From Clostridia bacterium (GTDB taxonomy: Bacteria > Bacillota > Clostridia > Oscillospirales > Acutalibacteraceae): a stretch of DNA of 32,000 bases. Positions 8,564-30,985 of this stretch are shown in pieces. The notes below the pieces were generated by a model. It worked only from the letters and a program-made list of their open reading frames with translations, was not told the origin of the DNA and did not search any database. A program made the translations under genes and the position numbers. How positions within the stretch are numbered: the stretch's first letter is position 1; each line of letters opens with the position of its first letter. The stretch covers positions 95,858 through 127,857 of the forward strand of contig JAFQRY010000017.1 in the NCBI GenBank assembly GCA_017409845.1, written 5' to 3'.

Positions 8564-9460
8564 ATGATTGACAAAATTATCAGTGCATTTTTTGCGGTTG
8601 TTACGGCGGTTATGATGCTTTTTTATACCCCGACTCCCGTAACGGTTGTCAGCCCCGAAAAAGTTCCCGAGGCAAAAATCACACAGGACATAACCGTTAT
8701 GAGCTATAATGTTTATATCAAGGGCTCAGGCGAAAAGTCACCCGAAAACAGAACCCCGCTTGTTGCGGAAAACATAAAAAAATACTCCCCCGATTCATTC
8801 GGCCTTCAGGAGGCTGACGAGGGCTGGATGGAAAGACTTCCCGCAATAATGACAGACTATGCTTATGTCGGCATCGGCAGAGATTCAGATGAGGGTGGCG
8901 GAGAGGCAAGTCCGATTTTTTACAAAAAAGACAAATATGAGTTGATTAATTCGGGTACATTCTGGCTTTCAAAAACTCCCGAAAAGGCTTCGAGAGGCTG
9001 GGATGCAATGTTCAAGAGAGTCTGCACCTTTGCAATTCTCAAGGATAAGCAGACGGGCTTCACATACGCTCATTTCAATGCACATTTTGACCATCTCGGC
9101 GTTATTGCAAGGCTTGAATCCGTTGCTGTTGTTGCAGCAAAGATAGCTGAAATCGCCCCCGGACTTCCCGTTGTTTTCTCGGGCGACCTCAACGATTATG
9201 AAGGCGGCGATATGTATAACAGAGTGCTTGAAAGCGGTCTTAAGGACACAAAATATCTTGCAGAAACCGTAAGCGGCGGAAACGTTACATATCACGGATA
9301 TTCCGAACTTGTTGAAAAGGCTGCACCCATTGATTTCATTTTCACAAATGCTCTTTCAACAAAGGTTCAGAGCTATGCGGTTGTCAGCGAAGAAATCAAC
9401 GGAATTTACGCATCCGACCATCATCCCGTAGTTGCAACCATGACCATGATTAACGGATAA
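8564..9460 (+). CDS. endonuclease/exonuclease/phosphatase (EEP) family protein, paralog 1, N-terminal signal/anchor
   Basis: 298 aa. Hydrophobic N-terminus IISAFFAVVTAVMMLF. Motifs SYNV, FGLQE, HFN.H.DH, SGDLN and C-terminal SDHHPV are typical EEP catalytic motifs. Confidence 0.8.
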   Translation: MIDKIISAFFAVVTAVMMLFYTPTPVTVVSPEKVPEAKITQDITVMSYNVYIKGSGEKSPENRTPLVAENIKKYSPDSFGLQEADEGWMERLPAIMTDYAYVGIGRDSDEGGGEASPIFYKKDKYELINSGTFWLSKTPEKASRGWDAMFKRVCTFAILKDKQTGFTYAHFNAHFDHLGVIARLESVAVVAAKIAEIAPGLPVVFSGDLNDYEGGDMYNRVLESGLKDTKYLAETVSGGNVTYHGYSELVEKAAPIDFIFTNALSTKVQSYAVVSEEINGIYASDHHPVVATMTMING

Positions 9461-9472
9461 GGAGATATAATT

Positions 9473-10402
9473 ATGTATTTTAAACTTATGCAGAAGGTTG
9501 TTGCTTTTTTTGCTTCGCTCATCGCAATTTTCGCACCCGTTGAGCCTTCAGAAGGCATCGACCCCACTCTTCCTCTCAAAAATGTTAACCCCAATCCCGT
9601 TGCTGAAGCAGCGATGTCGCAGGATTTAACAATTATGTCATACAATGTCAAAATCACCGGTGACGGTCTGCGTTCAAACGAAAAAAGACTTCCTCTTATA
9701 GTTGATACCTTTCTTGCCGAAGCACCCGATTCATTCGGTCTTCAGGAGGCAGACAAAGCATGGGTTGAGGGAATTGCCGCAGGTCTGAGCGATTATGCAT
9801 ACATTGCAAAATACAGAGATGACGGCATTTCCGAAGGTGAATCCTCCGCAATTTTTTATCTTAAAGATAAATATGAGCTTGTGAATTCCGGATTCTTCTG
9901 GCTTTCCGAAACTCCTGATGTGCCTTCAATGGGCTGGGATGCCGCATGCAACAGAATCACCTCATATGCAATCCTCAAAGACAAATCCACAGGCTTTACA
10001 TATGCTCATTTCAACACTCACCTTGATCATGTAGGCGGTGTTGCTCAGGCTGAATCTATTGCACTTATCTCTGCTTATATTGCGGAAATTGCACCTGATA
10101 TCCCCGTTGTTCTCACGGGTGATTTCAACTTTGCCGAAGGCACATACAATTATGATACCGTTCTCAAAGCCGGACTTAAAGACTCAAAATACATGGCAGC
10201 GGAATATGATGACCATGCAACCTATCACGGCTATCATGTTATCATGCCCGACAACAAGCCCATCGACTATATTTTTGTCAACGGCTACTGCTCCTCGGTT
10301 AAATCCTATTCAATAAATTCCGACTTCACTCACCATATTCTTGCATCCGACCATTTCCCCGTTACGGTTGAAATGACACTCTTTAACGGAGGTGCAAAAT
10401 AA
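9473..10402 (+). CDS. EEP family protein, paralog 2, N-terminal signal peptide
   Basis: 309 aa, aligning with paralog 1 along its whole length (roughly half the residues identical by eye, e.g. PDSFGLQEAD, KDKYEL.NSG.FWLS.TP, ILKDK.TGFTYAHFN.H.DH). Signal-like VVAFFASLIAIFAP. SDHFPV at the C-terminus. Confidence 0.8.
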   Translation: MYFKLMQKVVAFFASLIAIFAPVEPSEGIDPTLPLKNVNPNPVAEAAMSQDLTIMSYNVKITGDGLRSNEKRLPLIVDTFLAEAPDSFGLQEADKAWVEGIAAGLSDYAYIAKYRDDGISEGESSAIFYLKDKYELVNSGFFWLSETPDVPSMGWDAACNRITSYAILKDKSTGFTYAHFNTHLDHVGGVAQAESIALISAYIAEIAPDIPVVLTGDFNFAEGTYNYDTVLKAGLKDSKYMAAEYDDHATYHGYHVIMPDNKPIDYIFVNGYCSSVKSYSINSDFTHHILASDHFPVTVEMTLFNGGAK

Positions 10403-11158
10403 ATGTACCGTATTCTTTCCTTCAACTTACTCTGTGCAGGTAAAGAACAGAGAACATGGCAAAAAAGAGCACCAAAGGTTATCAGCATAATCAGAGAAGC
10501 AAATCCGGATTCATTCGGTGTTCAGGAAGCCCATTGGGAATGGATGGAAACACTTTCTCAGAATCTTCCCGAATACAGCTATGTAGGCGTAGGCAGGGAA
10601 GACGGCAAAAAGGATGGCGAATTTTCCGCTGTTTTCTATAAAAAAGATAAATTCACGGCGAGCGAAAGCGGAAATTTCTGGATTTCTGAAACACCCGAAA
10701 AACCGTCAAAGGGCTGGGATTCAGCATGCACAAGAATTGCAACCTTCGTCAAGCTCACCGACAAGGAAAACGGCAAGGAATACATTCATTTCAACACTCA
10801 TCTTGACCATGTGGGAAGAATTGCACAAATCAACGGTGCAAGGATGATTCAGGAAAAAGCGGCCTCCTTCGGCGGTCTGCCTGTTGTCTGCACGGGTGAT
10901 TTCAATGTTTTTCAGGATTCCGACTGCTACAACACTATGGTCAGCGGCAACATGAAGGACGCAAGAAAGCTCGCACCCGACAGCGATGAATGCTACACCT
11001 TCCACGGCTTCAGACCCGATGAAATCCACGAAAGAATCGACTTCGTTTTCGTTGATGAAGCAACGGTAAAGCCCGTCAGCTTCAAGGTTATCAATAAAAT
11101 GGTTGACGGAGATTTTTACTCTGACCACAATGCAATTTATGCAGATGTAGAAATATAA
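10403..11158 (+). CDS. EEP family protein, paralog 3, no signal peptide (cytoplasmic)
   Basis: 251 aa. Same motif set (SFNL, PDSFGVQEA, FN.HLDHVG, TGDFN, SDHN) but it starts directly with the catalytic domain. The start abuts the paralog 2 stop. GGAGGTG RBS. Confidence 0.8.
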   Translation: MYRILSFNLLCAGKEQRTWQKRAPKVISIIREANPDSFGVQEAHWEWMETLSQNLPEYSYVGVGREDGKKDGEFSAVFYKKDKFTASESGNFWISETPEKPSKGWDSACTRIATFVKLTDKENGKEYIHFNTHLDHVGRIAQINGARMIQEKAASFGGLPVVCTGDFNVFQDSDCYNTMVSGNMKDARKLAPDSDECYTFHGFRPDEIHERIDFVFVDEATVKPVSFKVINKMVDGDFYSDHNAIYADVEI

Positions 11159-14700: not shown

Positions 14701-15903
14701 ATGGCTAATTTTTGCACAAAATGCGGCAACCCCATCAACGAGTGCACCTGCACAGGCACAGCAGTACCGAAAAAACAGAATTTTATGACAATCAGGGATT
14801 TCTTCGGTGTAAGAGAATCCGACAACCATCTCAGCACTGCAGACTGTTTTGAAAGAGACAAGCAGATCGTTCCTGATCTTATCAAGCTTTCCGAGGGCGA
14901 ACAGCCCATAAAGCAGTATGAAATCGGCCGTGTCCGTTCAAGATCAACCCTTTCATGGGGCTATTCGAGAATTCAGATTACAAACAAGCGTCTTATTCAG
15001 AGAACCGTCGGCCGATCGGCAATCGGCAAGGACATAGGATACCGTGAATATGCAATCGACGATATCATCGGTCTCAACTACACAAGAGGCAAGCAATTCT
15101 CCTTCAACGATTTTTGCATCATCGCATTGATTTCGCTTGTTTTCATTGCACTCGGAACTCTTATCGGTCTTCTCGGCATCGTTGTTCCTATCCTCGTTTC
15201 GGTTCTTGCAATCGGCTTCCTCGTATTTATGCTCGGGATTCAGAAGCAGTCAAACAATTTCCTTTGCACTCTTGTTTCGGCCTTCACCCTCGGTTCATGG
15301 GCAGGCACTGTTGCAAAAAATGTCCGTAACTTCAACTTTTCAGAAGAACTTTATACCGTTTGTGCCGCATTTGCCGCTGTATTCCTTATCTGCAGTCTGT
15401 TCTTTGCAATCAGATTTGCTCTTCTTCCGAGCATTTCGCTTGTTATCAGAACAAAATCATTCCAGACTGCCGCCACAGCGGTTATAACAAGAAGAGCCCT
15501 TCCCATCACAATGCCGGAAACCGTTCTTCCCGGTAAGGATACGGAAAAAGCAATCAAAGAAATCGGTGCAATAATCACCGATATTCAGAATCTCGGTGAC
15601 AGTGCTGTTGAAAAGTGGAAATACGCACCCCGAAGACCCCCCCGTCAGGCAGCTCTCACTCCTCAGCACGCTCCCGCTCCCAGACATACTCCCGCTGAAC
15701 AGAGACCCGTTCAGCAGGATATTCCCATGCAGAAGCCCATCCATCAGGCTCCCGCCGCTCAGAAGCCCGCACAGAGACCTGCTGCACCCGTGCAGACTCC
15801 CGTTCAGCAAAGACCCGTTCAGCCTGCAGCTCCTCAGCAACCAAAGGCTGAAAAGAAATACGATTTCGAGCTTGATTTTGATTTCGATATTGATAATTTA
15901 TAA
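14701..15903 (+). CDS. zinc-ribbon / PH-like / multi-TM protein with Pro/Gln-rich C-terminal tail
   Basis: 400 aa. FCTKCGNPINECTC; a bacterial-PH-like segment (YEIGRVRSRSTLSWGYSRIQITNKRLIQR); 3-4 hydrophobic helices; a low-complexity PxxQ(K/R)P tail; and an acidic-aromatic end YDFELDFDFDIDNL. AAGGAG RBS. Confidence 0.6.
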   Translation: MANFCTKCGNPINECTCTGTAVPKKQNFMTIRDFFGVRESDNHLSTADCFERDKQIVPDLIKLSEGEQPIKQYEIGRVRSRSTLSWGYSRIQITNKRLIQRTVGRSAIGKDIGYREYAIDDIIGLNYTRGKQFSFNDFCIIALISLVFIALGTLIGLLGIVVPILVSVLAIGFLVFMLGIQKQSNNFLCTLVSAFTLGSWAGTVAKNVRNFNFSEELYTVCAAFAAVFLICSLFFAIRFALLPSISLVIRTKSFQTAATAVITRRALPITMPETVLPGKDTEKAIKEIGAIITDIQNLGDSAVEKWKYAPRRPPRQAALTPQHAPAPRHTPAEQRPVQQDIPMQKPIHQAPAAQKPAQRPAAPVQTPVQQRPVQPAAPQQPKAEKKYDFELDFDFDIDNL

Positions 15904-15908
15904 TAAAA

Positions 15909-16340
15909 ATGCAGCTCTTCCCGATAACGGAAGGGCTGTTGCTTTTGAAAAGTGGTGATTATACCGTTGTTAAAATGACGATGAATCCGCAGACAGACCC
16001 GATTCACGCAGACCAATATACAGGCACGGCGGGTCATGCAATAACAGTTCTCGGCGATATTTCTCTCGTGCTTTCGGAATTCCCTCAGTATGATGTTGAT
16101 GTTGAAAACGCGGTTATTGATATTCATTATGTCAATCCGACCGTAAAAGGTTAAAATCAACAAAGACGGTTACATTGAAAAAGGTATGTGGAAATATACA
16201 TGTGATTCCGAAATCAGAAATCTTGATATAAGCGGAATAATGATAAAGAAGGCTGACGCAAAAATTGATTACATGATCACGGTCAGCGGAGGCATTTGGA
16301 AATACGGGGAACAAATCGCTCAAACGGTTCGTTCCTTTTT
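15909..16340 (+). pseudogene. possible truncated and frameshifted papain-like (C39-like) peptidase remnant
   Basis: The 81-aa ORF contains GHAITVLG ... IHYVNPTVKG (a His ... N/D-P..G layout like the C-terminal half of C39/papain-fold peptidases) but has no catalytic Cys region. Its ATG lies inside the upstream terminator. The reading continues in the +1 frame from 16153 (KINKDGYIEKGMWKYTCDSE...TVRSFL*) to about 16340. Confidence 0.3.
15912..15946 (+). terminator. intrinsic terminator after the zinc-ribbon pair
   Basis: 10-bp stem CAGCTCTTCC (15912-15921) / GGAAGGGCTG (15929-15938) with one U-G wobble that pairs only in the plus-strand RNA, followed by TTGCTTTT. Confidence 0.6.
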
Positions 16341-17007: not shown

Positions 17008-19500
17008 TTAGTCTGGAGTTCCATCAAGATAAACTATATTTGCATTTTTCAGGTGTGTGTTATCTTCGCTGACCTCAATAGATTCCCATTGTTCCTTGGT
17101 ACCGTAATAGTAAACGGTGTTAAGTTCTTTGTTATCATTGAACGCCGAATCACCAATTATTCTGACATTTGAAGTAAAGGTTAAAGTTTTAAGGTTTTCA
17201 CAAAAAGAAAAGCACTCCTGCGGTATTTCGGTAACACCTTTTCCGATTGATAAAGATTTCATACCCCTGCAACCCGTAAAAGAATTTTTTCCTAAATATT
17301 TTGCACTGTCAGGAATATCTATGCTTATCAGGTTTTCGCATAAGAAAAAAGCGTGGTCCTCAATGATTTCAACACCCGCACCCAGGTCAACCGTCTTTAA
17401 AATTTCACACATACTAAACGCATTCTCACAGATAATCTTAACGGAATCGGGAATGATTAAGTTTTCTATGCTTCGATTATTCGCGAAAGCCCCACCGCCT
17501 ATCAAGGTTGTTCCGTTTTTTATTTCAAGCCTTGACGAACATTTTTCTTCTTTTGAATCAATCAGATAATTGTCAAGATACAAAACACCGTTTTCCCAGT
17601 TTGATTCATCAAGCCAATAACCGGTGTGACCGAAAACATAACCGCCCAGATGCTTTATATTTGAACCTATTTTTATATCTGTCAAACCTCTGCTTTCCCC
17701 AAATGCCGCTCCGCCGATACTTTCAACACTTTCAGGAATAACAACACTTTTAAGGTTATAGTTCCCTGCACAGTTTGAAAACGCACCGTAAAAATCATAA
17801 CCGTTATCACCAAAAATATATTTTACGGTATTCGGTATTTCATATTTCTCTATATCACTTGCAACGGGAAATCTTATCAATTCCGTTTTGTCTTTATTGA
17901 AAAGAACTCCATGGGAATCATTGCTGAGAAATTCATTTTCAGGGTCAACAACAAATCTTTTTGCGGGAGTTACAAAAGAAGAATATAAAAAATCTTTAAC
18001 GCCTTTACCTATTTTTATGGTATCAAAATCTCCGGAAATTGCATCAGGTCCAAGCTTCTCGACGCTGTCGGGGATGACAAGCTCTTTTGCGGATGCCTGA
18101 CAAAATGCAGCATAACCTATTTCTTTCAGACCGTCATTCAATTTCAAATCTTCAATAGGGCAACTGCAAAAGGCACAAGCACCTATATATTTAACGCTTT
18201 TCCCGAAATGAACCTGCTTTAAACTTGTTAATCCGGGGAAAGTATAGCTTCCGATTTTTGTAACACCGTCACCTATAATCATTTTTTTGACTTTGTCGGC
18301 ATGATGATGCCATGGCGTTATCTCCATCTCAGGGCCTTCAAAATCACGAAGCTCACCCTCACCGTCAAGGCGGAAGGTTCCTTTTTCATCAATGCTCCAT
18401 GTCAGAGTGCCGATTTTTCCGCTGTACGGCATTGCCTGCGCAACCGTTAACGATACTTGCGACTCTGTCATACTGTAAGTCGGCTTAGTTGATGTCGGCT
18501 CCGTCCGACCGGTTTCGGCTTGTGTTGTTGACAAAGTCGTCATTTCATCTGAAGCAGGTTGGCTTTCAGGGTCTGTTATAAAGAACACGGCAAGCAATAC
18601 AGCAGCAAGAACCGATACGATAATTACCCAAAACGTCGGTTTTTTGTAGTTCAGAATATTCCTGATTCTGTCCTTAACCGCAACCTCTCCGAATGCAAGA
18701 GGATAGGAGTAAACTTTTTTTCGGCTGACGCTGAGATCAAAAAGTGTTTTTGAATACTGCTTCTTATCGACAGTATCGAATTCTTTTATTACCTTTTCAT
18801 CACAGGCAAGTTCAATATCCACGCAAAAAAGCTTATATGCTATCCAACAAATCGGGTTAAACCAATGAACGGTCAATAACACATAGCCCAAAAGCTTTTG
18901 TAAATGATCAAAGCGTTTAAGGTGTGCTTTTTCGTGAGCTATTACATATTTCGCCTGCTCTGCATCTATGCTTGACGGAAGAACAATTTTAGGCTTAATA
19001 ATACCGATAATGAACGGCGTGTCAATACCATCGCAACAATAAACGCCTTCTGTCAATTCAACGCTTTCTTTTAATTTTATCGAAAGTCTGATATAGCTGA
19101 CGAGCGAAAAAATTACAATAGCAGCAATTCCCACAAACCAAATTATCGAACAGATAAAAAGTAATATCTGAACAGGGTTTACGCTTTCACCTGTTTTGGG
19201 GGCAAGATTTTGAGATATAATCGGATTTATAACACTGTCAACTGTTTCAAATCCGCTGTTGACAGAGGGAGAAGGAGAATAAACAATATCTTCGGGTATT
19301 GGTTTTGCACTCGGAATAAGGCTGACCACGCTTTTAATTGACCAAGGAAATACAAGGCGGAAGGCAACTAATCCCCAAAGGGCCTCACTTATATATTTTG
19401 GCGATTTTTTCAGTAAAAAACGGACAAATATAACCGCAAAAATCAGCCAAGTAGCAGAGAAACTCATATTAAGGATTTTTAAGAATAAGTCCATAATCAT
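17008..19500 (-). CDS. BlaR1/MecR1-type M56 metallopeptidase signal transducer fused to a BspA-like leucine-rich-repeat ectodomain
   Basis: 830 aa. N-terminal TM helices, the zinc motif AHEKAHLKRFDH, then WFNP and ELACDE as in M56 sensors; a further TM (FWVIIVSVLAAVLLAVFFI) and a Thr/Ser-rich linker. About 480 aa of repeats follow, of the form IP.SV..IG..AF..C..L (LRR_5/BspA type). No penicillin-binding-type sensor domain. Confidence 0.8.
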   Translation of the reverse strand: MIMDLFLKILNMSFSATWLIFAVIFVRFLLKKSPKYISEALWGLVAFRLVFPWSIKSVVSLIPSAKPIPEDIVYSPSPSVNSGFETVDSVINPIISQNLAPKTGESVNPVQILLFICSIIWFVGIAAIVIFSLVSYIRLSIKLKESVELTEGVYCCDGIDTPFIIGIIKPKIVLPSSIDAEQAKYVIAHEKAHLKRFDHLQKLLGYVLLTVHWFNPICWIAYKLFCVDIELACDEKVIKEFDTVDKKQYSKTLFDLSVSRKKVYSYPLAFGEVAVKDRIRNILNYKKPTFWVIIVSVLAAVLLAVFFITDPESQPASDEMTTLSTTQAETGRTEPTSTKPTYSMTESQVSLTVAQAMPYSGKIGTLTWSIDEKGTFRLDGEGELRDFEGPEMEITPWHHHADKVKKMIIGDGVTKIGSYTFPGLTSLKQVHFGKSVKYIGACAFCSCPIEDLKLNDGLKEIGYAAFCQASAKELVIPDSVEKLGPDAISGDFDTIKIGKGVKDFLYSSFVTPAKRFVVDPENEFLSNDSHGVLFNKDKTELIRFPVASDIEKYEIPNTVKYIFGDNGYDFYGAFSNCAGNYNLKSVVIPESVESIGGAAFGESRGLTDIKIGSNIKHLGGYVFGHTGYWLDESNWENGVLYLDNYLIDSKEEKCSSRLEIKNGTTLIGGGAFANNRSIENLIIPDSVKIICENAFSMCEILKTVDLGAGVEIIEDHAFFLCENLISIDIPDSAKYLGKNSFTGCRGMKSLSIGKGVTEIPQECFSFCENLKTLTFTSNVRIIGDSAFNDNKELNTVYYYGTKEQWESIEVSEDNTHLKNANIVYLDGTPD

Positions 19501-19859
19501 TCCTCCTTAAAAGAATCAATCATCGCTCTGATTTCATCAATCTCTTCATTTGAAAGTGCTTTTTTTGCAGTGAAAGCAGCAAGAAAGGCAGGCAGAGAAC
19601 CGTTAAAGTTTTCCTCAACATAATTGTTGCTTTGCATTGAATAAAAATCACTTCGAGATATGAGTGAGGTTACGGTGCCTTTTTCATTTTTGAAAATACC
19701 TTTATTGCATAGCCTTTTTAACACCGTGAAAGAGGTTGTTTTTTTCCATTTTAGTTTCTGTTCGCTGATTTTCGCAAGTTCAGAAGATGTGATTGGTTCA
19801 TTTGACCAAATAATATCCGCAAAATTCGATTCAACAGAACCCATTTGCAAAATTTTCAT
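19497..19859 (-). CDS. BlaI/MecI/CopY-family winged-helix transcriptional repressor
   Basis: 120 aa. IIWSNEPITSSELAKISEQKLKWKKTTSFTVLKRLCNKG matches the BlaI-family wHTH pattern. ATGA overlap with the M56 gene. AAGGAG RBS. Confidence 0.8.
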   Translation of the reverse strand: MKILQMGSVESNFADIIWSNEPITSSELAKISEQKLKWKKTTSFTVLKRLCNKGIFKNEKGTVTSLISRSDFYSMQSNNYVEENFNGSLPAFLAAFTAKKALSNEEIDEIRAMIDSFKEE

Positions 19860-19877: not shown

Positions 19878-19931
19878 ATTCTACACATTGTAGTATGCCT
19901 CTATACTACAATGTGTAGAATGAAATGTCAA
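19878..19931 (-). promoter_or_regulatory. promoter overlapped by a double BlaI-type operator
   Basis: Perfect 18-bp inverted repeat TTCTACACATTGTAGTAT (19879-19896) / ATACTACAATGTGTAGAA (19903-19920). Each arm contains a TACA-N-TGTA dyad of the BlaI/MecI operator type. Minus-strand TTGACA (19931-19926), 17-nt spacer, TAGTAT (19908-19903) lies within or next to it. Confidence 0.65.
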
Positions 19932-20105: not shown

Positions 20106-20211
20106 TGGAGAAGAAGCAGAGATTCGACTTGTACTCCTGAGGTCGCTTGGTCGCTCGCGGTCACGACAGCCCACCGGACAGTTGCTCTGTACCGCTCGTC
20201 CTTCGAAACCC
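20106..20211 (-). repeat. 106-nt conserved element, copy A (tRNA-3'-end-like terminus on minus strand)
   Basis: Core 20146-20211 matches 28522-28587 at 62/66 positions. The 40-nt tail (20106-20145) has the same length as in copy B and about 26/40 identity. The minus strand ends UCGAAU-CUCUG-CUUCUUC-U-CCA. Confidence 0.6.
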
Positions 20212-20228: not shown

Positions 20229-20268
20229 CAAAAAAGAACAGACACCACAAGGGTATCTGTTCTTTTTT
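20229..20268 (-). terminator. intrinsic terminator downstream of the 20450-21853 gene
   Basis: 12-bp stem AGAACAGACACC (20235-20246) / GGTATCTGTTCT (20252-20263), with one position that pairs (G-U) only in the minus-strand RNA. A/T runs on both sides. Confidence 0.6.
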
Positions 20269-20449
20269 ATGTTACGAGTGTTAACAGATTCAATGAATTA
20301 ATTGTTAACAGCGGTTAAACACACATTGTTTCAAGCTGTCAGTAACAACTGAAAGAATTGCAGATTATGAAAAACAATATTATATATTATGAATTCAACA
20401 TTGATACTGCATGTATTGCCGTCGAAAATGAATGTGCAAACAATATGTA

Positions 20450-28445: not shown

Positions 28446-28478
28446 TAAAAAAGCCGCAAGAACCTTAGTTCTTACAGC
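28446..28478 (-). terminator. intrinsic terminator directly after copy B of the 106-nt element
   Basis: 11-bp stem 28453-28463 / 28468-28478 containing two positions that pair (G-U) only in the minus-strand RNA, followed by UUUUUUAUUUAUUU on the minus strand. Confidence 0.65.
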
Positions 28479-28481
28479 TTC

Positions 28482-28587
28482 TGGCGGAGAGTCAGGGATT
28501 CGATTCGCGCCGCTGCGGCGGCTTGGTCGCTCGCGGTCACAACAGTCCACCGGACTGTTGCTCTGTACCGCTCGTCCTTCGAATCCC
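28482..28587 (-). repeat. 106-nt conserved element, copy B; 3' end identical in layout to a tRNA-Ser 3' end
   Basis: See copy A. The minus strand ends UCGAAU-CCCUG-ACUCUCC-G-CCA (GGAGAGU-type acceptor complement, discriminator G, as in Firmicute tRNA-Ser). No T-stem 5' strand, D arm, anticodon arm or 5' acceptor strand exists upstream. Confidence 0.6.
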
Positions 28588-28596
28588 ATTTATCAC

Positions 28597-28637
28597 AAAA
28601 AAACAAAAAAAGAAGCAATTTCTTCGAAATCACTTCT
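28597..28637 (-). terminator. intrinsic terminator after the tRNA-Arg fragment
   Basis: 12-bp stem 28611-28622 / 28626-28637 with two G-U pairs that form only in the minus-strand RNA, followed by UUUUUUGUUUUUUUG. Confidence 0.6.
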
Positions 28638-28642
28638 TTTTA

Positions 28643-28687
28643 TGGCGCGCTGCAAGGGATTCGAACCCCTGACCTTTTGGTTCGTAG
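28643..28687 (-). pseudogene. 3' half of a tRNA-Arg(ACG) gene (anticodon loop to CCA); 5' half absent
   Basis: The minus strand reads CUACGAA-CCAAA-AGGUC-AGGGG-UUCGAAU-CCCUU-GCAGCGC-G-CCA. That is anticodon loop, anticodon-stem 3' strand, variable loop, complete T arm, acceptor 3' strand, discriminator and CCA. Upstream sequence (28688 onward) cannot form the anticodon-stem 5' strand, D arm or acceptor 5' strand. Confidence 0.7.
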
Positions 28688-29114
28688 CGGCATACGCTAT
28701 GTGGAACGATGTTCCGTTTCGTGGTAACTTGCAGAATTTTGTGCCATAAGGTCAATTTCAGCAACCAAAAGGCCAATTTCTGCAAGTGTTGATATGCTTG
28801 GATTCATGCAAAAACTCATTTTTCGTCCGTTTGTTAGAATTTTGTTAGAACAAACAATGCCGTCCTTTTGGCGCAGGATTTCCTGCAGAATGTAATTTAT
28901 TAGGAAAAGTCAGTCTTTTTGACGGCCTTTTTTCTGTTCTGAATGATAATAACAAGCTGTTATCCAGATATAACCGATAATTCCTGCTGTTGCAAATGGA
29001 AATTTGTTTTGACCGATTAATAAAATATTTTATAAAATAATGCACCGTATTACTTTGTTAAAAGTGCAAAACTTTAAAGCGATAAAGCAAATAATTTTTT
29101 GTGAAATTTTGCAA

Positions 29115-29143: not shown

Positions 29144-29170
29144 GACAACAATTCAATAACTCATAAACGC

Positions 29171-29365
29171 AATGACGAGGAGCGGCAGATCAATCCCGCA
29201 TCAGAGAGCCGATGGTTGGTGTGAATCGGCGGACGGATTTATCAAGGCTAAATCACCTCAGAGCGGCGAGCCTGAAAGAATTTTTGAGTAAGGCAGACGG
29301 AGCCCGACCGTTACAGCGGGGAGCGATGTTAGTCGTGTTTTTTGTAGTTTACTACCATAAAAGCT
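29171..29365 (+). promoter_or_regulatory. T-box leader unit 1: Stem I/II/IIA-B only, probable Ile (AUC) specifier, degenerate T-box sequence
   Basis: AUGACGAGGA K-turn strand; AGAGAG bulge (29203-29208) and GGUGUGA distal loop (29218-29224); AUC-A directly before the CCUC stem strand (29252-29259); F-box CCGUUA (29308-29313). The T-box position reads AGUUUACUACCAUAA, with no UGGN bulge and no clear terminator. Confidence 0.55.
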
Positions 29366-29653
29366 ATGACGAGGAATAAGCGGTTTGTACCTGCTTCAGA
29401 GAGTTGACGGATGGTGCGAGTCAACGGAAGGTCTTATTTGCGAGCTCTCCTCCGAGCAGCCTACCCGAACCAATCTTTTGATACATAGGGAGGACGGAGC
29501 CTGACCGTTACAGCAGGGCGCGATGTTGGTCGCAGTGAGTGGTCGCCTTTCGGGGCGGCAAGAAGAGTGGTACCGCAAGATTTTTAATTATTTTGTATTA
29601 GAAATCCTGTCTCTTTACTATTTATTAGTTCAGAGGCAGGATTTTTTGTTTTT
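29366..29653 (+). promoter_or_regulatory. T-box riboswitch unit 2: complete, probable Leu (CUC) specifier, with antiterminator and terminator
   Basis: AUGACGAGGA; AGAGAG (29398-29403); GGUGCGA (29413-29419); CUC at 29445-29447 before CCUC; F-box (29505-29510). T-box AGAGUGGUACCGCAAG (29564-29579) has a UGGU bulge. Terminator stem 29602-29613 / 29633-29644 plus a U-tract; its 5' strand can alternatively pair with the T-box sequence. Confidence 0.75.
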
Positions 29654-29788
29654 CTGACTGCCGATAAAGGCGACGGAAACGCCTTTTCCCCTTCGACGTA
29701 TCCGCATACGTCCTCAGGTGAAAAAACGCCCCCGTCATCCTTTCTCAACAGCCATAATTATAATTTGTACGGATTGGAGTGTAGTGAA

Positions 29789-30985
29789 ATGTTGACGCTT
29801 GACAAGATTTTTGAAGCACAGGTGGTGCTCAAGGACATTATAAGAGCAACAAAGGTTGTTCCCTCAAACGGAATTGCGGCGGATTGCCGACTATATCTGA
29901 AACCCGAAAACCTACAGAAAACAGGCTCTTTCAAGCTGCGAGGCTCAGGCTATAAAATAGCTACACTTTCCGATGAGGAAAAGGCAAGAGGAGTTATAGC
30001 CTGCTCGGCAGGAAATCACGCTCAGGGCGTTGCTCTTGCGGCATCGAAGCACGGGATCAAATCTCTGATTTGCCTGCCCGACAGTGCTCCGATTTCAAAG
30101 GTTGAAGCAACAAAAGGCTACGGCGCAGACGTTTGCCTTGTCAACGGTTGCTATGACGACGCTTATGCAAAGGCACTTCAGCTGAAGGATGAAATGGGTT
30201 ACACCTTTGTTCATCCGTTTGATGACGAAGCGGTGATTGCAGGACAGGGAACAATCGGTCTTGAAATTGCAAGCGACCTTGATGACGTTGATGCGGTTAT
30301 CGTTCCGATTGGCGGCGGCGGTCTTATTTCGGGTGTTGCTTATGCACTAAAATCAATCAGACCCTCAATCAAGGTTTACGGCGTTCAGGCGGCAGGCGCT
30401 CCGAGTATGTTCAACTCGCTGAAAAGCGGAAATATTGAGTGCCTTGATTCCGTTTCCACAATCGCAGACGGTATTGCCGTCAAACAACCCGGTGAACACA
30501 CCTTTGAGTTAATCAACAAGTATGTTGATGATATCGCACTTGTAACAGAGGATGAAATCGCAGGCGCAATTCTTGAACTTATCGAAAAGCAGAAAATGAT
30601 TGCCGAAGGTGCGGGAGCTGTTTCCGTTGCGGCGGCAATGTTCAATAAATTTCCGATTCAAGGGAAGAAGGTTGTAAGCCTTGTTTCGGGCGGAAACATA
30701 GATGTTACAAGCCTTTCAAGAGTTATCAAACGAGGCCTTATCAAATCGGGCAGGACTTCAAGTATGCTCATTGAACTGATTGATAAACCCGGTCAGCTTA
30801 AGGATGTTTCAAGAATTATCGCAGACTGCGGCGGAAACGTTACCGGCGTTCATCACGAGCGTGCAGGCAGCACGGAGAGCGTGAACGGCTGTTATCTGCG
30901 AATCACAATGGAAACCCGTAATTATGACCACGTTCTTGAAATCAAAGAAGCACTTAAAGCAGAAGGCTTCAAAATAGTAGAATAA
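29789..30985 (+). CDS. ilvA: threonine ammonia-lyase (threonine dehydratase) with C-terminal ACT-like domain
   Basis: PLP-lysine motif QKTGSFKLRG; GNHAQG; GGGGLISG; a C-terminal regulatory domain of about 80 aa. The ATG at 29789, 9 nt after GGAG, is preferred over the TTG at 29765. Confidence 0.9.
   Translation: MLTLDKIFEAQVVLKDIIRATKVVPSNGIAADCRLYLKPENLQKTGSFKLRGSGYKIATLSDEEKARGVIACSAGNHAQGVALAASKHGIKSLICLPDSAPISKVEATKGYGADVCLVNGCYDDAYAKALQLKDEMGYTFVHPFDDEAVIAGQGTIGLEIASDLDDVDAVIVPIGGGGLISGVAYALKSIRPSIKVYGVQAAGAPSMFNSLKSGNIECLDSVSTIADGIAVKQPGEHTFELINKYVDDIALVTEDEIAGAILELIEKQKMIAEGAGAVSVAAAMFNKFPIQGKKVVSLVSGGNIDVTSLSRVIKRGLIKSGRTSSMLIELIDKPGQLKDVSRIIADCGGNVTGVHHERAGSTESVNGCYLRITMETRNYDHVLEIKEALKAEGFKIVE

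Follow-up and report, generated by a model that had tools for sequence, protein, structure and literature searches.

A small structured element that repeats tRNA 3′ ends in gut Clostridia and may be a guide-bearing insertion element

Two 106-nt sequences on the minus strand of a 32-kb stretch of clostridial DNA (the whole of which we call the window) are rearranged copies of a small structured element that had not been described before and is frequent in a single family of gut Clostridia. On the comparisons presented here, we lean toward interpreting it as a non-autonomous, guide-bearing insertion element for tRNA and tmRNA genes, one that may move via an RNA intermediate and of which the 106-nt unit would be the right-hand part. 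Both copies in the window are orphans whose tRNA has been lost. The case for this interpretation is built mainly on relatives of the two copies, where the element can be seen beside its tRNA gene.

Results

Two orphaned copies in the window

Copy A (20211 to 20106, minus strand) and copy B (28587 to 28482, minus strand) form D1, the longest direct repeat found by a repeat search of the window. The first-pass annotation had described them as a single unit, and this holds, with 62 of 66 positions identical in the first part, 26 of 40 in the second, and 88 of 106 overall. A covariance model built from 76 distinct copies in relatives matched the window only at these two places, with scores of 122.7 bits for B and 95.9 bits for A. 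Neither copy could be assigned to a known RNA family, as that annotation had also said: Rfam 15 returned nothing at the gathering threshold, and when filters were permissive and E <= 10 was allowed on small sub-windows, only terminator look-alikes came up.

Each copy ends in a tail with the layout of half a T-loop, the 3′ strand of a T-stem, seven nucleotides, a discriminator, and CCA (UCGAAU / 5 nt / 7 nt / N / CCA), which agrees with the earlier description. Its label of “tRNA 3′-end mimic” needs correcting, since in relatives the tail is a true duplication of nt 55–76 of the tRNA gene directly upstream. As had been noted, the D arm and anticodon arm are absent upstream of the tails in the window; the acceptor 5′ strand of a cloverleaf is absent as well. 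With only nt 55–76 present and no ARAGORN call, we rejected a tRNA gene or pseudogene as the identity of the unit. A tmRNA was likewise rejected: the tmRNA mode of ARAGORN was negative, and the real tmRNA found in a related locus (L001) is a target of the element. ARAGORN detected no tRNA or tmRNA gene anywhere in the 32-kb window, and the cognate tRNAs of both tails are missing from it.

Copy B (28482–28587, minus strand) consists of a 5′ arm, a conserved core, and the duplicated tRNA end, and its closed domain folds with −47.1 kcal/mol (z = −3.0). The arm (GGGAUUCGA, 28579–28587) is the reverse complement of tRNA nt 55–63 and forms the 5′ strand of helix P1, as indicated by the covariation of that helix. 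The core (28504–28578), defined from alignment A2 and its pair counts, runs in the order junction A, hairpin P2 (28525–28577, with an AGA bulge and a GGU triloop), junction AA, the variable GC hairpin P3 (28509–28522), and junction GCGAA. The tail (UCGAAUCCCUGACUCUCCGCCA, 28482–28503) copies nt 55–76 of a tRNA-Ser-type gene and recurs identically, together with the terminator downstream of it, in L080, L074, and L153. Terminator-like hairpins lie on either side of the copy on the minus strand. The upstream one, T1 (28607–28641), follows an intact tRNA-Arg(ACG) in L113 and L071; the downstream one, T2 (28449–28481), is orthologous to T2 of L002, L080, and L109, and its U·G pairs work on the minus strand only.

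A third orphan tRNA 3′ end, absent from the first-pass annotation, is found just upstream of B (28688 to 28643, minus strand). This is a 5′-truncated tRNA-Arg(ACG) whose homology to the intact genes in L113, L102, and L072 starts in the anticodon loop (CUACGAACC...GCGCGCCA). ARAGORN was negative on 28643–28688, and the BLAST start points agree with the truncation. It looks like a conventional attR-type remnant, probably left by an island that integrated in the anticodon loop. About 250 nt of its upstream flank (to approximately 28960) are shared with L105, and similarly truncated tRNAs are present in L020, L025, and L008.

Copy A (20106–20211, minus strand) is decayed. Its core (20128–20202) has mismatches in P2 and P3, its tail (20106–20127) is degenerate, and with its arm (20203–20211) its fold is no more stable than that of shuffled sequences (z = +1.2), as expected of a copy in decay. 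An ortholog, L035, has the same degenerate tail. Upstream of A is a T1 terminator hairpin (20229–20270, minus strand), followed by the spacer GUUUGCAGAAAUUAAGAAG; this type of T1 is also found after tRNA-Ser(GGA), tRNA-Arg(ACG) (L080), and tRNA-Gln (L057). Next to it, 20271–20325 (minus strand) is tentatively a decayed remnant of the 3′ part of tRNA-Ser(GGA), based on a weak alignment to intact loci; it is shared with L035, and ARAGORN was negative on it. The terminators described earlier on both sides of each copy are present on both sides of B. For A, the upstream one stands (−24.2 kcal/mol, with a U-tract), and the downstream one amounts to essentially nothing (−3.7 kcal/mol). The complementarity of AAGAAG to CUUCUU reported for A exists there, but it is absent from L035 and from other copies, and we treat it as incidental.

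In its upstream half, B has the T1, spacer, arm, and P3 type of Arg(ACG) loci (L113, for example), and its tail and T2 match the Ser-type locus L080, with flanks 94–97% identical. In L122, which is from the same species as the window and has an identical downstream gene, a truncated tRNA-Trp and a Trp-type arm are joined to the tail of B. A Trp-type upstream half in one strain and an Arg-type half in the other, on one and the same tail, imply that copies recombine through the core. The best reading of the window would be that A is decaying where a Ser(GGA)-type site once was and that B is a recombinant between copies, located beside the truncated tRNA-Arg(ACG). Three origins had been offered in the first-pass annotation, the first being a family of small RNAs derived from tRNA. 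“Recombination scars” suits the copies in the window, given the Arg(ACG)-type upstream half and the Ser-type tail of B. The “end of a tRNA-targeting mobile element” comes closest for the family, but not as the end of a larger island, because the whole unit is only about 150–190 bp and gene-less. Upstream of the truncated tRNA-Trp, L122 (1–2900) encodes a 991-aa RVT_1-like protein and an MNT/HepT toxin–antitoxin pair; this island end differs from that in the window and is joined to a B-type tail via the element core.

The tail is a duplicated tRNA end

Relatives of the element occur in more than 200 loci from Acutalibacteraceae, other Clostridia genomes, and gut metagenomes. In most of these loci, an intact tRNA or tmRNA gene precedes the element by 40–79 nt on the same strand, and nt 55–76 of that gene recur exactly, in direct orientation, as the tail. 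Whether tails always resemble different tRNA ends had been raised as a question; across relatives, they duplicate at least 20 tRNA types. The targeted isoacceptors include Ser, Trp, Met, Arg, Leu, Ala, Pro, Lys, Gln, Val, and Asn, and in L001 the upstream gene is tmRNA. Such exact repetition marks the tail as a copied gene segment and not as an evolved or convergent mimic. Insertions into tRNA genes classically leave a duplicated 3′ segment of the gene as their footprint.

We carried out a census of the tail in 144 distinct full-length copies. The repeat starts at T55 throughout, CCA is present at the tail end in 125 of the 144, and a cognate 3′ end is found upstream in 76. While the T55 end of the target duplication is fixed, the other end is variable, and the repeat length is bimodal: either 22–33 nt, to CCA plus a few A-rich bases, or 58–79 nt, to the T-run of the terminator. 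The shorter class matches the mature tRNA 3′ end, and the longer one matches that of the primary transcript. The longer duplications can also be explained by tandem duplication and then deletion through the repeats. The tail mismatches the upstream tRNA in many copies (for example L080, L113, L147, L122, and B in the window), so homologous recombination between copies explains part of the pattern.

A complete unit behind an intact tRNA gene

Read in the direction of the tRNA, a complete unit is approximately 150–190 bp long, has no genes, and begins 0–2 nt after the tRNA CCA. It consists of an A-tract, terminator hairpin, and U-tract (together T1), then a 6–19-nt spacer, the arm, the core, and the duplicated tRNA end. 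A direct copy of tRNA nt 55–76 stands on either side of the unit, so that the upstream tRNA stays intact and gains a new terminator. The element is always co-oriented with its tRNA, and no promoter was found between T1 and the element. The T1 hairpin GAACAGAUACC...GGUGUCUGUUC is common to tRNA-Ser(GGA), tRNA-Arg(ACG) (L080), and tRNA-Gln (L057) sites, and T1 travels with the unit.

Filled and empty sites can be compared directly. In L185, a unit made up of A-tract, hairpin, U-tract, spacer, arm, core, and nt 55–76 separates tRNA-Leu(CAA)-CCA from GAAAAAAGCAC..., while in L194, with the same flanks, tRNA-Leu(CAA)-CCA runs straight into GAAAAAAGCAC... The two loci therefore differ by an indel of one unit flanked by exactly 22 repeated bases, which could be a deletion through the repeats instead of an insertion. 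Similarly, tRNA-Gln has a unit in L057 and none in L007. Different subfamilies can be stacked in tandem behind one tRNA, as in L030, L071, and L029. From these patterns, we infer that the element is, or was, mobile.

Another dispersed repeat family appears to share this location. In many of the loci L141–L217 (e.g., L194, 7900–8000), numerous tRNA genes and element tails are followed by a recurrent terminator (AAAAAAGCACUUCUUCGGAAGUGCUUUUUU), then by another conserved hairpin (AUCCACCCUUCGGGUGGGU) and some 200 nt of repeats.

A target-complementary arm

The arm is an exact reverse complement of tRNA nt 54–66. Its length ranges from 9 to 16 nt, usually 9–12 nt, with 16 nt in L064 and L107. The arm of Trp loci reads GAAGG at the position where their tRNA reads GAGGG. 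We considered whether the arm could be a leftover T-stem 5′ strand with T-loop and rejected this, because its loop portion is complementary, not homologous, to the T-loop, and the G·U of the tRNA is missing from its stem portion. In the variant L071, the arm keeps 14 nt complementary to nt 54–67 and the tail starts at nt 61. An arm that is longer than its pairing with the tail fits a guide better than a purely structural helix. Copies in which the arm mismatches the tail, or the tail the tRNA, persist.

A constrained three-way junction

On the tRNA-sense strand, the core of about 75 nt folds into a three-way junction of P1 (arm with tail), P2 (a long irregular hairpin), and P3 (a variable GC hairpin). 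Both helices proposed in the first-pass annotation are borne out by the relatives. The 5′ GGG(A/U)UUCGA pairs with the 3′ UCGAAUC(C/U)C in a helix that covaries perfectly, and the hairpin ACAGUCC-GGU-GGACUGU is real and conserved. Covariation across homologs is strong; with this, and with no known RNA family matched, the refuting conditions set in that annotation do not apply. In alignment A2, 96.4% of cells are paired and 19 of 37 pairs have changed on both sides; none of 500 shuffles reached the observed pairing values, and no slid register came close. Columns 5–13 and 93–101, which form P1, are paired in 96–100% of cells, and the both-sided changes track tRNA type. P3 varies freely by compensating changes, and its variants also track tRNA type across genomes. 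A G31·U53 wobble in 70 of 76 sequences (G-C in others) identifies the folded strand as the tRNA-sense strand, the minus strand of the window.

P2 has an invariant AGA bulge and a CC-GGU-GG tip. The AGA bulge with GCAACAGUCC-GGU-GGACUGUUG is the most conserved module of the element and is kept in at least four otherwise different subfamilies, and large insertions are found only in the P2 loop and around P3 (L028, L001, L030, and L041). At the base of P2, one variant, L190, has CGA/GAG changed to GCC/GGC. This single sequence suggests that tandem G·A pairs replace the register of the minimum free energy (MFE) fold, which we rejected because L190 supports C18-G62, G19·A61, and A20·G60. U25 is C in most metagenome copies, so that 25 and 55 are not a pair.

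Several other structural likenesses were considered. Pairing of the GGU loop with NCC of the tail was discarded, as no covariation with the discriminator base was seen by eye. The resemblance of ACAGUCC and ACAGAG to the hairpin ribozyme does not hold, since here the two pair with each other and the topology differs, and hammerhead, twister, and other junction motifs were absent from the element by eye. A T-box Stem I was suggested by the AGAGA bulge and GGU-rich loop, but a 10-bp helix with a 3-nt loop does not fit it.

The core is also conserved relative to its surroundings. Between L002 and L080, the core is 100% identical, the adjacent gene 82%, and the intergenic DNA 72%; the core must therefore be constrained, whether for the host or for the element's own propagation. 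Taken with the tracking of tRNA type by P3, this conservation could equally mean that the element is a host-selected, vertically inherited RNA.

Distribution and linked genes

An 18-nt piece of the core (GGACGAGCGGTACAGAGC) was found in at least 119 stretches of one-genome-per-species contigs. Nearly all of these matches are in metagenome-assembled genomes (MAGs) of Acutalibacteraceae or unclassified Clostridia from gut and rumen, with several per genome, some in tandem, and many at contig ends. A 25-nt piece of the apical hairpin was found in 91 stretches in gut metagenomes. Viral contigs, INPHARED phages, and PLSDB plasmids had no match to the element, and literature searches by keyword and by core sequence returned nothing relevant to it. 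A large share of the element matches (L001–L119, L130–L220) lie within about 100 nt of a contig end, and the element evidently breaks short-read assemblies of these genomes.

We looked for genes that might move the element. Among the first ORFs downstream of 86 copies, Pfam identified no integrase, transposase, or reverse transcriptase, and no family was enriched; the neighbors of the window copies likewise had none of these. Among 92 downstream ORFs listed, 40 are on the same strand and 52 on the opposite strand, with unrelated functions. The loci retrieved and the phage and plasmid collections contained no autonomous relative.

These data bear on which class the element could belong to. Related loci have the direct repeat of a tRNA 3′ segment that characterizes tRNA-targeting islands. 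An integrase-type island was rejected, as between the repeats there are only a terminator, spacer, arm, and core in place of an integrase with kilobases of cargo, and no Phage_integrase was found in the 86 downstream ORFs. Like a miniature inverted-repeat transposable element (MITE), the element is short, non-coding (it has no ORF), multi-copy (more than 200 loci), and flanked by a repeat. The flanking repeat, at 22 nt, is much longer than the usual MITE target-site duplication. The inverted repeat of the element consists of the arm and the target copy, and it changes with tRNA type. A derivative of IS200/IS605 or a TnpB guide RNA was rejected because of the 22-nt duplication, a left flank that is not the 5′ part of the tRNA, and the lack of Y1 or TnpB nearby. 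A retron ncRNA would also have a closing helix, but no reverse transcriptase gene is adjacent in 86 loci and the order of hairpins is unlike msr-msd. We rejected a riboswitch or T-box leader as well, as there is no promoter after T1 and the downstream ORFs lie on both strands with unrelated functions.

Other features of the window

T-box leaders are present elsewhere in the window. Two tandem leaders (29163–29331 and 29357–29617, plus strand) scored 55.6 and 92.6 bits against a gathering score of 93; they lie upstream of a PALP+ACT (threonine dehydratase-like) gene at 29765–30985, and repeat family D11 is this tandem arrangement. At 17008–19859 (minus strand), a BlaI-type repressor is encoded with a BlaR1 (M56) sensor that has an unusual C-terminal BspA-type leucine-rich-repeat domain, and a perfect palindrome at 19880–19921 overlaps a TTGACA/TAGTAT promoter. 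Three tandem paralogous genes of 298, 309, and 251 aa (8564–11158, plus strand) are the source of repeat families D2, D4, D8, and D10. Family D3 (15671–15823, plus strand), in or near ORFs 14701–15958, consists of short 45-nt repeats, tandem or interspersed, with many CCCG and CAGA motifs.

Discussion

The features that we would explain by insertion are a unit placed immediately behind an intact tRNA gene, a direct repeat of the end of that gene, and an arm complementary to it. In the mechanism we propose, the arm would be a base-pairing guide that selects the T-loop and T-stem of a given tRNA; this would explain both the complementarity of arm and tail and the existence of element lineages specific to tRNA type. 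The RNA would most likely arise when transcription from the tRNA promoter reads through into the element, and tRNA 3′ processing would set it free. A hypothetical trans-acting reverse transcriptase could then copy the tRNA 3′ end to nt 55 and continue onto the element RNA. Insertion at the DNA level by a guide-directed recombinase is a possible alternative. We favor the RNA route because the unit starts just behind the mature 3′ end, the repeat stops at the 3′ end of either the mature tRNA or the primary transcript, and the unit has no promoter of its own and is always co-oriented with the tRNA.

A more specific form of this proposal is offered tentatively, as one possible account. The element might be a bacterial SINE-like retroelement or RNA-guided element that rides tRNA genes, in which the read-through RNA pairs through its arm with nt 54–66 of the cognate tRNA or its gene, and a trans-acting enzyme, copying first the tRNA 3′ end to nt 55 and then the element, rebuilds the element and tRNA end behind the tRNA gene. 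The conserved AGA-bulge/GGU hairpin could serve as the handle for that enzyme. To our knowledge, no bacterial element of this kind is known, and a SINE-like target-primed mechanism is without precedent in bacteria.

The main rival is a host-selected non-coding RNA residing in the 3′ external spacer of the tRNA, made by read-through of T1 and presenting a mimic of the tRNA 3′ end. We judge it rather unlikely, but it is not cleanly separated from the mobile-element interpretation, and the two are not mutually exclusive. P1 would hide the T-arm half and expose a single-stranded acceptor 3′ strand with NCCA, so that the RNA could divert enzymes or toxins from tRNA 3′ ends by acting as a decoy, or could serve as an external guide sequence for RNase P. 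As a natural external guide, it would pair with the 5′ acceptor strand of a tRNA, and the duplication would be merely the origin of the RNA. Strong covariation, the G·U conserved on the tRNA-sense strand, and a core fully conserved beside a gene that has diverged are all what such an RNA would be expected to show. So are length-variable insertions confined to the P2 loop and the surroundings of P3, as in functional RNAs, a terminator after the tail, and a tail that stays identical to the tRNA, including CCA, in 125 of the 144 copies. Against it stand the lack of a promoter, a strong terminator directly upstream, and the persistence of copies with mismatches between arm and tail or tail and tRNA. 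Presence/absence variation and tandem stacking look selfish, the GGU loop does not covary with the discriminator base (by eye), and the element has no known partner linked to it.

A folded single-stranded DNA attachment site is, in our view, quite improbable. Here, a forked hairpin would imitate the T-loop and T-stem of the target, and a tyrosine recombinase of the host or a helper would exchange one strand, as for CTX-phage attP or integron attC. Integration of the CTX type leaves an inverted target copy, about 80 nt, and a half-site that continues into the chromosome, and the element, with its inverted target copy, roughly 80 nt, and target half-site running into chromosomal DNA, resembles such a leftover. 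Pairing that is strand-specific, including G·T, is compatible with this origin, and the boundary in the T-loop is a classical integrase crossover site. Against these similarities, conservative recombination would need the correct tRNA end on every element, and duplications that run to the end of the terminator are unexplained. In addition, there are no replication or packaging genes, no linked recombinase, and no match in phages, plasmids, or viral contigs.

We consider it very improbable that the copies are attR remnants of ordinary prophages or islands that were later deleted, with a conserved island end and a displaced 3′ end of the tRNA left behind. Integration of this sort is normally recognized by a directly repeated tRNA 3′ segment, partial tRNA genes are a common outcome when genetic elements integrate (PMC9897764), and a real attR-type remnant, the truncated tRNA-Arg, adjoins B, but more than 200 loci have one cargo-free unit of about 150–190 bp with a near-identical core at 20 or more targets and no integrase, and different islands would not all decay to identical boundaries.

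If the insertion-element interpretation is correct, a widespread gene-less element in gut Clostridia inserts harmlessly behind tRNA genes, bringing its own terminator and a sequence complementary to its target. Targeting would be by base pairing with the T-arm, and the hypothetical enzyme could be programmable. In its RNA-guided or SINE-like form, it would represent a new class of guide-programmed mobile element. Whatever the mechanism, the element is a new conserved family of structured nucleic acids with at least four subfamilies, absent from Rfam. It accounts for orphan “tRNA 3′ ends” that confuse tRNA annotation, and its copies are dispersed repeats that break metagenomic assemblies. These copies also recombine between strains, reshuffling the neighborhoods of tRNA genes and the islands located there.

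The element has partial counterparts among known systems. Islands and prophages with tyrosine integrases, whose attL/attR duplication begins in the T-loop or the anticodon loop, also target tRNA and tmRNA genes, repeat the 3′ segment from the T-loop, keep the gene intact, and accrete in tandem. Unlike them, the element is 150–190 bp without integrase or cargo, uses one core for at least 20 tRNA types, has an arm complementary to its target, and has a repeat whose limit falls precisely at CCA or where the terminator stops. Target-primed retrotransposition of SINEs by LINEs shares non-autonomy, a borrowed promoter, and a duplication with one fixed and one variable end, and the 3′ region of the element RNA would likewise pair with the nicked target. 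However, our element resides in bacteria and lacks poly(A), the loci surveyed contained no partner reverse transcriptase, and the mechanism is deduced from sequence boundaries only.

IS200/IS605 elements with TnpB guide RNAs (omega or reRNA) offer another parallel. The guide of a TnpB guide RNA is the DNA flanking the right end of the IS200/IS605 element. Such RNAs thus resemble our element in having a conserved scaffold followed by a variable 3′ segment that is flanking target, and they too have non-autonomous derivatives. In contrast to the element, IS200/IS605 elements insert after a fixed tetranucleotide without target duplication; no TnpA or TnpB is near the element, and the first half of its “guide” is paired with the arm. 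The forked hairpin of CTX-phage attP and integron attC share inverted arms around a loop of about 80–90 nt, strand specificity, and compensating changes. The loop of the element, its core, is highly conserved, whereas that of attC is variable, and the element has no R-box consensus and no linked recombinase or phage genes. Finally, viral tRNA-like structures and external guide sequences of RNase P similarly place an acceptor 3′ strand with NCCA beside a T-stem-like stacked helix. The element differs from these in that it has no acceptor 5′ strand, and therefore no helix that could be aminoacylated, and in that its tail is copied from a tRNA gene and not evolved.
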